IMG/VR virus record: IMGVR_UViG_3300032284_001272
Span: 1-58,942 of that record
DNA length: 58,942 nt
Direction: 5' to 3' (one strand)
DNA from: a virus
Lineage: Duplodnaviria; Caudoviricetes
A program made the position numbers and the translations under genes. A model generated the notes under the pieces. The model searched no databases and had not been told where the DNA came from. It was given only the letters and a program-made list of their open reading frames with translations. Numbering within the stretch: position 1 is the first letter of the stretch; the number at the start of each line of letters is the position of its first letter. Of the stretch, positions 15,556-49,521 are shown one piece after another.

Positions 15556-17673
15556 ATGAGCCACTATAAAAACGAAGCAAAGTCCGCGTCCCAAGCCAAG
15601 ATGAAGCGCATGGGTTTGCATAAAGAACATAAGTCGGAAGAGTTTAACGATGTGGGGCCATACGATGGCGTACCGCAGTTGGATTCCGGCAACGCTGGTC
15701 AGTGGCCTAAGGGCAAACAACGTTTCAAGCGCGGCGGCAAGGTGGCTCATCTTGAGGGGGATAAGGCTCGCAAGAACCTTGGCAAGTCTGCCCGCAAAAA
15801 GCGTGATGATGGCGGTCGCCTCCCGGGCGAAAACGCACAGTACGCTAACGCACGTGCGAAAGCTTACAACGCTTATAAAAACACTAAAGAAGCTGGCGAA
15901 GCTGCTGATAAAATTTATGAGACGAATGAAGATCCAACCGTCCGTCAGTTTGCGCGTGAGAACGCTCAGAATGTAGCGAACAAAGCCGTTGGCCCAGATC
16001 AAGATTTGGGCAAAGCAATGAAAGAAACTGGCTACGGTTATGCCCGTGGCGGTATCCCTAAAGGCTCCCCAGCCAAGCGTCAGGCTATGGTTGGTGCTTT
16101 GGCTAATCGTAAAAAGAAGGCTGGTATCCCGTCTGGCCCGGCTGCTCCTCGCGGCCCAATGATGAATATCCCTACCCCGGTCGGTGCTGGTGCGCCCGCA
16201 GTGCAGAACTCAATGATGCATAAAAAGGGTGGCGCGGTTAAGCATCGCGCTCACAAAGCTGGTGGAGGCGCTCAGTCAATTATGGATGAAAGTGGTTTGC
16301 GCAATTTACAACAATCTCGCAAATCTCGTGATTCTATGGAAGGTTTAAATCTTGGGGATTTAGGATCTTCCCGTCGCATGGCTTCGCATGGTGCAAACAT
16401 GGATAGTATGCATGAAAGAATGCGTTACAACATGAAAGATAAAGAAAACGCATCAATGACATCAAGCGGATTAAAGCATGGTGGCCGCGCTCATAAAATG
16501 GGCGGCGGAGGTTTGTCTGATTATATGAATGCGGCTAGCGGAAATCTTGCGGGTAACGCTCAAACATTTGGTTCTGGTCTTGCCAAAAATTATGTAAACG
16601 AAGATGCTAAACGCAACATGGAAAAACGTCAGGCCGGAATAAATCTTGCCGCAAAAAAACTTGCTGGCAAAGATGTTAATGTCCCTGCAACACGCAAACA
16701 TGGCGGTCGCGCTGCGCACCCTGATGAAGCAGAAGATAAGAAGCTTATCCGTAAGGAAGTTAAAGCATCTGCATTGAAGCATCGCCCTCATCGCGATCTT
16801 GGTGGGAAAGCCACTAAAAAGCCGGGGACAGTTTACCCGAATTATGAAAGCCATGAACACGTTGATCCGTCAACGTATGATTGGGCATCAAGCAATCCTA
16901 AAGACGAAGATTACGGTAAGCCAAATCAATGGCTTTTAGACCGTATGGAATACGCTCAAGAACTCAAGAGTGACAATGATCCGTCAGAAAACCGTGGTCA
17001 GGGTCCAGTTGCTCACAAGCATGGTGGCCGCGCTAAGAAATTTGCTGGTGGCGGCATGACTATGGCCCCAACAAACGCTATGGGTATGCGTGGTTCGCCT
17101 AACCAAGGTAACTTTGGAACACCTCCGGGTGTGGGTCCAAATGGTCAACCAATGCCGGGCAGATCACCTTCCCCATTCATTGGTGGAACTTTAATTGGTG
17201 GCGGAACTCCAACAGGAACTGGGTTTGAAAATATGCAACCACTAACTGGCGGATATGGTTCACTTCCAACGGGCGGCGCAATGAATAATATGCCGGGGTT
17301 TAATGCATCTGGCGTTTATAAAGATGGCGGTCGCATTCAACGCGCTTCCGGTGGGCGTACAAAGGGCAAGGGCAAGACAAACATTGTGATTAATGTGTCA
17401 CCACAGAGCAGCCAACCACCTGCCATGCCTATGCCTCCTATGCCTCCTATGGGCGGTATGCCTCCTATGCCTCCTCCGGGAGCTGGCGGCCCTCCTATGC
17501 CCCCTGCGGGCGGCGCTGGTGGTCCTCCTCCACAATTGGCACAGGCTCTTGCTGCGTTGCAGGGTGGCCCATCGCCAATGGCAAGAAAATCTGGTGGGCG
17601 TGTTCATCAGGAAACGGAATTTGGCTCCGGTAGCGGTCTTGGTCGCCTAGAAAAGCCAAAATGGTACAAGTGA
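15556..17673 (+). CDS. Basic low-complexity putative internal head protein / polyprotein with 14 xxGG junction motifs
   Basis: Repeated KRGG, KHGG, FAGG, KDGG and ASGG motifs separate dissimilar segments. Confidence 0.7.
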   Translation: MSHYKNEAKSASQAKMKRMGLHKEHKSEEFNDVGPYDGVPQLDSGNAGQWPKGKQRFKRGGKVAHLEGDKARKNLGKSARKKRDDGGRLPGENAQYANARAKAYNAYKNTKEAGEAADKIYETNEDPTVRQFARENAQNVANKAVGPDQDLGKAMKETGYGYARGGIPKGSPAKRQAMVGALANRKKKAGIPSGPAAPRGPMMNIPTPVGAGAPAVQNSMMHKKGGAVKHRAHKAGGGAQSIMDESGLRNLQQSRKSRDSMEGLNLGDLGSSRRMASHGANMDSMHERMRYNMKDKENASMTSSGLKHGGRAHKMGGGGLSDYMNAASGNLAGNAQTFGSGLAKNYVNEDAKRNMEKRQAGINLAAKKLAGKDVNVPATRKHGGRAAHPDEAEDKKLIRKEVKASALKHRPHRDLGGKATKKPGTVYPNYESHEHVDPSTYDWASSNPKDEDYGKPNQWLLDRMEYAQELKSDNDPSENRGQGPVAHKHGGRAKKFAGGGMTMAPTNAMGMRGSPNQGNFGTPPGVGPNGQPMPGRSPSPFIGGTLIGGGTPTGTGFENMQPLTGGYGSLPTGGAMNNMPGFNASGVYKDGGRIQRASGGRTKGKGKTNIVINVSPQSSQPPAMPMPPMPPMGGMPPMPPPGAGGPPMPPAGGAGGPPPQLAQALAALQGGPSPMARKSGGRVHQETEFGSGSGLGRLEKPKWYK

Positions 17674-17685
17674 TAAAGGAGAAAC

Positions 17686-48500: not shown

Positions 48501-49521
48501 CGGTGACGGTTCAATGTCTGGATCTGAAGGTATGGGGGCTGGATCTGCCGGAGATCTTGGCGGCACATATTCCCAAACAGTCCGTAATGATTCCAACCTT
48601 GGCGGCAGTGATGCTGGATTCTCTGCTCGCGCTGGGGATACACCCGGCTTTAACACGGGTATGCAAAGGGGCGTTGGCCCCGGTGTTGGAGAGCCAAGTA
48701 ACCAGTATGGTGGCGGTGGTGGGTATGGGGAAGCTCCAGTCCCTCAGGATATGACAGTGCATGGTGGACCTGTATTTGGTGGTCCGAACGACCAAATGTC
48801 TAACTTGCTTTCCCAAACTCCCGGCCCTGCTTTGATGCAGAAGGCATTGGATAATGCTGGTACATTTGGTGGGTGGTTCTCGGGATTAAACTCCCCGCAG
48901 CCGGGCAACCCATACTCTGACATCTCCATGGCGGGATCTCAGCAAATGATTAATAACATCAATGCTGGCAACCCATCTGATTTTGGGACGCTCGCGGGTA
49001 TTGAGGGACGATACGGTTCAACGCAGCCCGCGCACCCGTCTACCCCTACGCCGGGCAGTGCTTATGGGCCAGATTCTTCTGTCAACCCCGCATCACCCAC
49101 ATCATCTGATAACGCCTATAACTATACCCCTAGTGGAGTAGCGCCTATGGGTGGGTATTCCGGCATCCCTAAGTATCAGGGGGTTGGGGCTGGCTCTCCT
49201 GTTGACGCTTATAACCGACAGGCATCCCCCACAGCGAATACGGTTCGTTCCGACTTCAATAATGCTTTTGCGAATGCTGCTGCGGCTGGGTTGCATACTT
49301 TTGACTGGACGAACCCTGTGACGGGCCAGAGGGGCACATACGCGGTTAAAGCAAGGGCCACAGGCGGTGTTGTAAAACGCGCTACGGGCGGTCGTATCCC
49401 AGAGGTGGATAAGCTCTACAAGGCCGCTAAGAAGCTGGTGGACAATAGCACCAAGCCAATGTTGAACGTGGATGATGACTACATCGCGAAAGCATTGAGG
49501 GTGGCGAAAGGGTTAGTTTGA
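45556..49521 (+). CDS. Large DNA ejection protein with GG-flanked C-terminal cassettes
   Basis: Gly/Ala hydrophobic N-terminal segment, helical core, then RAFGG, YKKGG, YESGG and RATGG junctions. Confidence 0.75.
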   Translation: MAEANWSEVFGDTPGPDFGDEKPQQKTTDWGQVFGDKPGPTDTSETATAKDEYEKLVQSKEAEANKIMKSLGVQGAIEAGIQSTPIVGPIVQGIGATVGAALPESLGFATGDTYSKRKEDLYAQFEAMQRAAEKQHPYVKAGTEVASSLVLPAGGISAVGEAATGSKLLGLGLEGATYGGASALAEKAGSKPESEQQGVGSSALLGGELGLGLGAAGATVGKAIEKFAPEWMSAVGNKDDYQVSQLAKAYDKDVKAGNVSMSFDDWMAAHSNGQPVNLADLGGPNVQKFVTKTFKNQPDLADQFRDTLLGRSQDASSRFSDFAQSLTDSDLNASQIIDEAKQEAVRAQRQAYAAAYEPENGSGTWNPQWSRWINLPEVKNAIIKTEDDLVNDAQHRNLDPNGRFPEINQVRSPFTSVDTPNGGFKLVMSSPQAVNMKYIDFLQRNLNDAIDAVPSSAQGGVKDSLINIRKKIISDVTNPDSDYYNAAYANAYNSTPLFRGQTDAFSYGKNLLSSIRDPVKASRIANETGMMTDAEKDFAMKGVMSDMLAKATKPDGSLDTRKLQQYFMQGNPRQAMMNAFGGQKYADLKRFVDAESVMAEAYAKSRQLGKVTSTVPRDMSTLLSYLFFDKYALAKVVADYGNKFMSDRYAKNMVQRLMSDDPQSIRSAYDDIINNKPVRGAFTNMLSRFVPVAGGQAGIQPMGRQTQTNPVEDYVNSQLQAAGIKRAFGGRVAYKKGGRVEKGEGGSLSELEQYMRDLMGDYGAKRVQRAADEIPGLEKMYTPEAIKKAFGEKNTVLTSMPTKKFLSFAQPLENNGYYYEDDRGNKLDQEQYVRFLAEKAKTTGLYDVPYLGVKNLEEKGKKIVAGAPYIYKHEGRHRNLGMLREGIPTGLARIFPNEETMVKNKIGKRLEHPEFVSKMNDLMGPSRMVSPETSVSSFSKNPDILHSLQKQEMPEFYESGGRIHKDDGGGTDTSGGPGSAPGGDGSMSGSEGMGAGSAGDLGGTYSQTVRNDSNLGGSDAGFSARAGDTPGFNTGMQRGVGPGVGEPSNQYGGGGGYGEAPVPQDMTVHGGPVFGGPNDQMSNLLSQTPGPALMQKALDNAGTFGGWFSGLNSPQPGNPYSDISMAGSQQMINNINAGNPSDFGTLAGIEGRYGSTQPAHPSTPTPGSAYGPDSSVNPASPTSSDNAYNYTPSGVAPMGGYSGIPKYQGVGAGSPVDAYNRQASPTANTVRSDFNNAFANAAAAGLHTFDWTNPVTGQRGTYAVKARATGGVVKRATGGRIPEVDKLYKAAKKLVDNSTKPMLNVDDDYIAKALRVAKGLV

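Follow-up and report, generated by a model that had tools for sequence, protein, structure and literature searches.

A recurring glycine-glycine peptide unit at the borders of interchangeable modules in post-portal and ejection-block proteins of a tailed phage

The tape measure protein pb2 of phage T5 is cut into pb2* and pb2C, and mass spectrometry places the cut after residue R1127, according to the accessible part of PMC10038345. The tape measure protein gpH of phage lambda is cut into gpH* and gpHC in a glycine-rich region, and the accessible text of PMC12617516 describes both the site and the catalyst as open. A further kind, the polyvalent proteins that Iyer, Burroughs, Anand, de Souza and Aravind (2017) described in phages and conjugative elements, was predicted to be packaged, injected and processed into parts, and zincin-like metallopeptidases were proposed as the processing enzymes (PMC5512222, in its accessible text). 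Here I analysed a tailed-phage genome, IMG/VR record IMGVR_UViG_3300032284_001272; the window is this whole virus record of 58,942 bases. It was found that a short peptide unit, [F/Y/R/H/K]-x-x-G-G, recurs in five of its proteins, which are called A to E in their order along the genome. The units are seams between interchangeable modules, and this architecture of seams and cassettes is solid. Judged by its sequence, the feature joins two known kinds, the polyvalent injected proteins and the tape-measure processing sites, through one short peptide. No description of the seam peptide was found in the literature, subscription journals and supplements lying outside the search.

A paired unit in five proteins

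Protein A is encoded after the portal gene, B is a small His-rich protein, and C, D and E are the three large genes of a late block with a homolog of an SLT-bearing 'DNA ejection protein'. An earlier note on this DNA had counted 14, 4, 4, 5 and 7 motifs, about 34 in all, in the five reading frames. The five carriers are confirmed, and a recount gives 32 non-overlapping [FYRHK]xxGG units (13 in A, 3 in B, 4 in C taken as 38904-40352, 4 in D and 8 in E), plus one in a frameshifted extension. All seven pairs that had been quoted were found in the translations. About 20 of the 32 units stand in pairs or triplets, often doubled with a tandem spacing of 8 residues. The consensus of the 32 units is [R/Y/K/H/F]-[K/A]-x-G-G-[R/K]-[V/I], and glycines recur 8 residues to either side.

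Is this more than expected for Gly/Lys-rich sequence? Residues were shuffled inside blocks of 20 or 40 residues or across whole proteins, and two forms were counted: a loose motif, [FYRHK]xxGG, and a strict motif, in which [RKHIVA][IVLA] follows the GG. In the pooled counts, 35 loose matches (overlapping ones included) were observed against 11.8-12.2 in shuffled sequences, 8 close pairs against 0.24-0.33, and 18 strict matches against 0.8-1.1, and none of these counts was reached in 1000 shuffles. The frequency is thus above that expectation. When each protein is considered by itself for the loose motif, the excess is clear in A (16 against 3.4-4.0, reached in 0 of 2000 shuffles) and modest in B, C and E (reached in 47-56, 32-36 and 15-32 of 2000, respectively). 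D is enriched in pair and strict counts despite a loose count at the level of chance.

The remaining 72 of the 77 greedily called open reading frames (ORFs), which comprise 14,319 residues, have 27 loose matches and only one pair, in the GH108 lysin. Seven of the 27 lie in a 35%-glycine protein, which has many GG pairs and no strict match and is a useful internal control. As had been claimed, the portal, the capsid and the terminase are free of pairs: loose matches number none in the portal, one in the terminase and two singles in the capsid-like protein of 305 residues.

Since the motif was chosen after looking, independent genomes weigh more. In the window, 18 of 19 strict matches fall in the same protein classes. 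A complete relative of 58,917 bases (G001) has 11 of its 13 strict matches in the orthologs of A, B, D and E (binomial P 2e-6), and MW202675.1, the nearest named relative by portal (45.5% identity), has 12 of 13 in four post-portal proteins and the homologs of D and E (binomial P 5e-7). The enrichment by protein class, which the note had proposed to look for in related phages, was therefore found in both.

The glycine codons at both G positions vary among GGT, GGC, GGA and GGG; therefore, the peptide is kept, and not a DNA repeat. The 21-nucleotide windows of the units share 9.6 of 21 nucleotides on average and 17 of 21 at most. Pure DNA microhomology as the cause of the units was ruled out by the varying codons, although one exact repeat of 18 nucleotides exists, at 16474-16491 and 17017-17034, where it codes KHGGRA at two junctions of A. 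This repeat could drive local rearrangement.

Units and modules in proteins A to E

Protein A is basic, Gly/Pro-rich and mostly of low complexity; its N-terminal end and C-terminal tail are conserved, and its middle consists of short cassettes. A search with the portal gave 25 viral-contig loci (46-99% identity), of which 19 have a complete post-portal ORF, three run off the contig end and three are without downstream DNA. The homologs of A in the 19 relatives are 357-1348 residues long, with 5-14 units each. They share about 60 N-terminal residues, which close in F[K/R]xGGKV, and the C-terminal part. Between these conserved ends they differ by whole short cassettes that are bounded by units, for example KxGGRAhKxxGG. 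The comparison with the closest relative (L003, 99% portal identity) gave one replaced cassette and one insertion of 158 residues in the window, and this insertion starts and stops at GG-x-x-x-H units. The final unit of A, RKxGGRV, is invariant in 11 of 11 aligned sequences, including that of MW202675.1 at 48% identity. A profile search of the C-terminal tail against PDB sequences gave chance matches only.

A similar arrangement was found in E, which has a conserved N-domain of about 700 residues (phrog_5880), a variable middle and a conserved tail of 55 residues. A peptide-pattern search of viral contigs for relatives of E gave no matches, and they were reached instead via the records behind the portal loci. 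Five related records were compared. All five have the N-domain (residues ~20-700), and four of them (G001, G002, G003 and G005) also have the last ~55 residues, at 46-65% identity, the copy of G004 running off the contig start. In the orthologs the N-domain closes in [H/F]AxGG[A/L]V. The orthologs are 916-1544 residues long, with middles unrelated in content, and the gene is split in two in G005; their inserted modules are themselves separated by units. The tail reads R[AS/Y]TGGRIPE and then a terminal amphipathic helix.

The terminal helix (..D-x-I-x-x-A-L-[R/K]-[I/V]-A.., at 49474-49518) was seen also in four E orthologs and in the E homolog of MW202675, as judged by eye and with no statistics. 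Similar helices stand, again by eye, at the N- or C-terminal ends of several post-portal polyvalent proteins (L001, L026, L036, L038 and L041). The helix is a possible packaging or docking signal. A ParB/Srx-like identity was considered for the cassette of E at 47740-48470 and was rejected, as no Pfam family matched at E<=0.1.

In D, conserved N- and C-domains (the former phrog_4287) flank an SLT domain at residues 615-722. Its units lie at residues 353/361, 929-944 and 1000-1007.

In the relatives, Pfam recognises enzyme modules between the units. A protein of 739 residues in MW202675 combines GNAT, an M15 peptidase and ART-PolyVal; a protein of 898 residues has InPase, one half of the split E gene (G005_E2) has ART-PolyVal, and a post-portal protein (L026) has PcfJ. 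For all five mapped enzyme domains (GNAT, M15, two ART-PolyVal and InPase), a unit ends 2-25 residues upstream, and for four of the five there is also a unit 9-93 residues downstream. Since the seams flank these domains, the proteins of the relatives are regarded as polyvalent proteins. Among A, C, D and E of the window itself, Pfam recognises the SLT domain of D alone and nothing in A, C and E. The claim that pairs fall at module borders thus holds for the swapped cassettes of A and E and for the enzyme domains of relatives. The alignment of orthologs that had been suggested has the expected outcome: the segments between junctions vary, and the junctions and the end domains persist.

C may start at TTG, which gives the 482 residues of Table 1, or at the ATG at 38958, which gives 464 residues, as does the public gene call. 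Its N-terminal part is variable, and its C-terminal double module is near-invariant among orthologs. The two modules, a and b, are related, and a unit stands before each. With 2547 representative clusters at E<=0.001, the family that this double module defines is very large; the sources checked gave no name for it and no Pfam, PHROG or NCBIfam model. The double module is always C-terminal, and in some members ART-PolyVal or NUDIX domains come before it. In the 150 best members, module a has an [F/Y/K/R]AxGG unit upstream of it in 102 of 148 cases, and module b in 81 of 122. An AlphaFold2 model of the C-terminal domain was built from 48 sequences, with a mean predicted local distance difference test (pLDDT) score of 77.7. 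Each module is modelled as a beta hairpin with helices (pLDDT 91-97), and the unit stretches score 43-61. In this model, the units are probably exposed and likely disordered stretches between folded modules. A fold search with the model against the PDB gave 0 matches at E<=0.001, a sequence search of C against the PDB gave a chance match only, and a tblastn search of the C-domain against phage records matched MW202675.1 alone.

B was found to be shorter than the earlier note had it. The frame read there as 22778-23372 has a stop at 23176, and YSAGG, counted there as the fourth unit, belongs to the +1 frame, in a start-less ORF at 23160-23372. The orthologs of B have three units in 10 of 11 loci and two in the other one. 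Nine of 11 relatives have a start-less frame after the B ortholog, and a unit opens every one of these frames. The offset is +1 in the window, L003 and L018 and -1 in the other seven. To judge from the reading frames, the start-less frame is probably reached by a programmed frameshift that fuses it with B. Its product has a sub-threshold Pfam match only, to the fusellovirus VP2 family.

Table 1. Positions of the unit-bearing proteins, their units and modules, and other genes in the window
Feature	Positions	Strand	Remark
GcrA-like cell-cycle regulator homolog	3457-4023	-	E 0.0044, below cut-off
Large terminase	11798-13393		
Portal	13397-15526		
Protein A, post-portal	15556-17673	+	705 aa (amino acids), 13 units; from translation and motif count
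Paired unit KKGGAVKHRAHKAGGG in A	16222-16269	+	left border of the 158-aa insertion relative to L003
Paired unit KHGGRAHKMGGG in A	16474-16509	+	
Paired unit KHGGRAKKFAGGG in A	17017-17055	+	
Paired unit KDGGRIQRASGG in A	17320-17355	+	opens the conserved C-terminal part
GroES-like co-chaperonin gene	17900-18298		Cpn10, E 6.8e-5; directly after the post-portal gene
Capsid-like protein	20604-21521		305 aa
Protein B, His-rich	22778-23176	+	132 aa; units RKHGG, KKRGG, RKHGG
ORF without start codon	23160-23372	+	+1 frame relative to B; YSAGG unit, then KWIQGAIKHPGAL module
SU10-type adaptor proteins, two paralogs	26918-27637 and 34371-35084		one tail module
Gly_rich_2 (Pfam) protein	31865-33550		561 aa, 35% glycine
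Protein C, ejection block	38904-40352	+	482 aa from TTG
C-terminal double module of C	39756-40349		
Module a of C (GRTD...GSYV...SGLGEGN)	39861-39950	+	resembles the GEFV segment of lambda gpH
Module b of C (AAGGEYVV...GNGD)	40182-40253	+	
Ejection protein D	40919-45544	+	1541 aa
Paired unit FAEGGRVGYADGG in D	41975-42013	+	closes the conserved N-domain
Ejection-block protein E	45556-49521	+	1321 aa
Triple unit AFGGRVAYKKGGRVEKGEGG in E	47734-47793	+	end of the N-domain
Paired unit ESGGRIHKDDGG in E	48427-48462	+	between a ~210-aa cassette and a Gly/Ser/Pro-rich stretch
Paired unit ATGGVVKRATGG in E	49357-49392	+	opens the conserved C-terminal tail
GcrA-like cell-cycle regulator homolog	54968-55447	-	E 8.5e-15

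Proposed cleavage at the seams and its alternatives

What is the seam for? The carriers A to E are most likely packed in the particle and sent into the host. In the translation of AY543070, R1127 of T5 pb2, the residue after which the accessible account of that protein places the cut, is the first residue of RAEGG. This is one of only 2 motif matches in 1219 residues, and ...MGEHGTEVV... comes after it. A random bond of pb2 would lie inside a motif with a chance of about 0.7% (8 of 1218 bonds). As mapped there, the cut lies before A-x-G-G and not after the GG. In lambda gpH (J02459), FATGG at 733 and YATGG at 778 flank ...VHRGEFVF..., as the earlier note had it, and the protein ends in FSGGGR. 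A hypothetical cut of gpH at 733/734 would give 79.8 and 12.5 kDa, compared with the reported ~78 and ~14 kDa.

The pattern of an [F/Y]AxGG unit with a GE[F/Y]V-type hairpin occurs twice in C. In an hhalign comparison of the C family profile with gpH 720-853, the unit of module b falls on FATGG and its GEYV on GEFV (E 0.0012, 37 columns). A tape-measure-like duplication in C is thus confirmed as a pattern, and the profile comparison weakly supports it.

From this analogy, the seams may be cut sites in A to E, a tentative reading that I place a little short of an even call. Among single mechanisms cutting fares best, since the one site that has been mapped in this family of peptides is a cut and since the units are exposed. 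The seams would be cut during virion maturation or after ejection, so that a multi-module protein would come apart into single peptides or enzymes; assembly and delivery would be the task of the conserved end domains. The agent may be a protease of the host, a phage enzyme not recognised as such or, by self-cleavage, the protein itself. A 1973 paper, going by its title, reportedly concerns the part that the host plays when a T5 tail protein is cleaved. Since the seam recurs, it is also a place where phages gain, lose and exchange modules. The earlier note had read these proteins as polyproteins of swappable cargo. In this claim the swappable modules stood, the carriers being the post-portal protein and the ejection block, and the T5 cut inside such a motif strengthens it; cleavage here keeps the tentative standing just given, and a packaging role of the motif and a place of these proteins in the head are likewise putative.

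Several points weigh against cleavage. No cleavage product, proteome or N-terminus was found for this phage or its relatives. A Pfam scan that covered 45 of the 77 ORFs, the 32 others being mostly short, gave no match to any peptidase family (E<=0.01 and E<=0.1). A spacing of 8 residues within pairs is odd for protease sites. Some units lie at the extreme C-terminal end (the 739-residue protein of MW202675, a 580-residue protein of Caulobacter phage RW, and lambda gpH), where a cut would free a few residues only. At the position before the presumed cut, the choice of residue is loose (R, Y, K, H or F). The loose motif is not enriched in D taken by itself (4 against 2.9-3.4, reached in 655-850 of 2000 shuffles); together with the fact that the motif is carried by five of 77 ORFs, this means that 'genome-wide' and 'code' had been overstatements. 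Behind the link to tape measure proteins stand one mapped site, in T5, and a weak profile similarity: the hhalign probability of the C family to lambda is 19.8%, T5 pb2 1110-1219 remained unaligned (E 0.45), and C matches neither TIGR01541 nor any Pfam family. An NCBIfam scan of A, B, C and E at E<=1 gave no match, while lambda gpH matches TIGR01541 at 1.1e-134; Tape_meas_lam_C (Pfam) had no match in the window proteins scanned.

A protease was also not found by PHROGs on 10 proteins. For the head-module proteins of 317 and 187 residues, which are encoded between the GroES-like and capsid genes, Atlas gave no protease lead, and the former has a weak scaffold lead there (0.87). Double-glycine sites are cut after the second Gly by C39 bacteriocin peptidases and by adenain-type viral cysteine proteases. 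GG-X cleavage of the adenain or C39 type was set aside, since Pfam gave no match to such a family among the 45 ORFs and since in T5 the cut is on the other side of the glycines.

A rival account takes the unit as a flexible joint that stays uncut and also serves as a recombination seam. GG hinges would help the proteins to unfold and thread through the portal and the tail, and the chains would stay whole. Such a hinge is possible and rather unlikely. It would agree with the place of the units in low-confidence, probably disordered stretches between folded modules, with the gain, loss and exchange of modules exactly at units, with the 18 identical nucleotides common to the two A units at 16474 and 17017, and with the failure to find a protease in the 45 ORFs. 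However, it has no need for conserved residues three before and two after the glycines. The varying codons mean that DNA homology is not kept, the units are invariant where no swapping is seen, and this same peptide is indeed cut in T5.

Could the unit instead be an address label, a short linear motif bound by a virion component (the portal, a scaffold, the capsid interior or the double module of C) that recruits or docks cargo? All five carriers are probable virion-internal proteins, including the small His-rich B, which has no enzyme module; A carries many copies; units occur at extreme C-terminal ends, where there is no need for a joint or for a useful cut; and the frequent unit before modules a and b in the 150 family members would suit a label too. 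Against this, the units of C do not dock on its modules in the model (pLDDT 43-61), and no partner is known. One address also needs no interior units between every pair of enzyme modules, and the conserved terminal helix and end domains are better candidates for a label. I consider the label quite improbable. As for chance in Gly/Lys-rich low-complexity sequence, the broad [FYRHK] class, the definition of the motif after looking and the loose count of D lend it so little that it is hardly credible, and it is refuted for the set as a whole by the local-composition shuffles, the lack of strict matches in the 35%-glycine protein of the same genome, the same protein classes in two independent genomes and the conserved unit positions among orthologs.

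The cleavage reading can be extended, although the extension is speculative and unlikely: the seam might be a processing code common to proteins that exit tailed phages via the tail, with no phage protease needed. On this extension, [F/Y/K/R]-[A/K]-x-G-G, with or without the GE[F/Y]V hairpin, would be cut in T5 pb2 and lambda gpH alike, and in lambda gpH the cut would lie at F733/A734 or next to it. The polyvalent cargo of podophages and the post-portal protein would be released as enzymes and small basic peptides, and phages would swap injected effectors by recombining at the seam.

Should the seam prove to be a cut site, a concrete prediction would follow for the site and the catalysis of gpH cleavage, the question that the accessible text of PMC12617516 leaves open, and the way in which phages without a recognisable protease make working parts of polyvalent proteins would be explained. 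Even uncut, the seam marks injected cargo modules in unannotated phage proteins and natural points of exchange.

Genome setting and comparison with known systems

No tape measure gene was seen in the window, and the genome is therefore of the podophage type. An alphaproteobacterial host is suggested by the two GcrA-like regulators. Beyond MW202675.1, the remoter portal relatives are HTVC023P-type pelagiphages, roseophages and Caulobacter phages; a megablast search of 13397-17673 against phage records found no close DNA relatives. Caulobacter phage RW, over the 18 coding sequences read, is not motif-rich and has one module-bearing protein that ends in a unit. A GroES-like gene is also annotated in MW202675.1 and in Caulobacter phage RW.

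Prophage-like regions of Rhizobium sp. BK316 (L062), R. lusitanum P1-7 (L064) and an Ancylobacter metagenome-assembled genome (L071) mirror the window at 38904-45544. Their gene order is a protein of ~680-730 residues, a short double-module protein, a protein of 157-170 residues and a protein of more than 830 residues with units. Prophages of cultured Rhizobium strains (L062, L064 and L065) have C, an acetyltransferase-like protein and D together in one block. These regions are possible culturable test systems.

How does the feature compare with the described systems? The tape measure proteins have the same peptide (RAEGG at the T5 cut, FATGG/YATGG in the processed region of lambda) and a GE[F/H/Y]-x-V segment after the unit, like the modules of C, and they too leave the virion through the tail. 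In contrast, the units here are many, often paired and mostly without a following module, and there is no tape measure protein.

The polyvalent proteins are likewise large, lie near the portal or in the ejection block, and string together unrelated effector domains, and the relatives studied here carry their signature domains ART-PolyVal, InPase and PcfJ. They differ in that a zincin-like peptidase was not found in the 45 window ORFs scanned with Pfam. In the accessible text of PMC5512222, 'glycine', 'GG motif' and 'linker' have 0 occurrences, and the seam peptide is not described there.

The likeness to the internal proteins of T4 is in the idea, head-internal precursors that are cut at a short recurring motif. 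In T4, the precursors of internal proteins and peptides are cut by the prohead protease gp21 after Glu, and small basic peptides are left with the DNA. T4 thus has a dedicated protease, and the unit here is unrelated to the T4 motif.

In polymorphic toxins, VENN in CdiA and PxxxxDPxGL in Rhs separate the constant delivery part from the swappable cargo. Their sequences and machinery are other than those of the phage proteins, and they belong to bacterial secretion systems. The likeness is that a short peptide at the border between the constant part and the cargo serves exchange and, for Rhs, cleavage.

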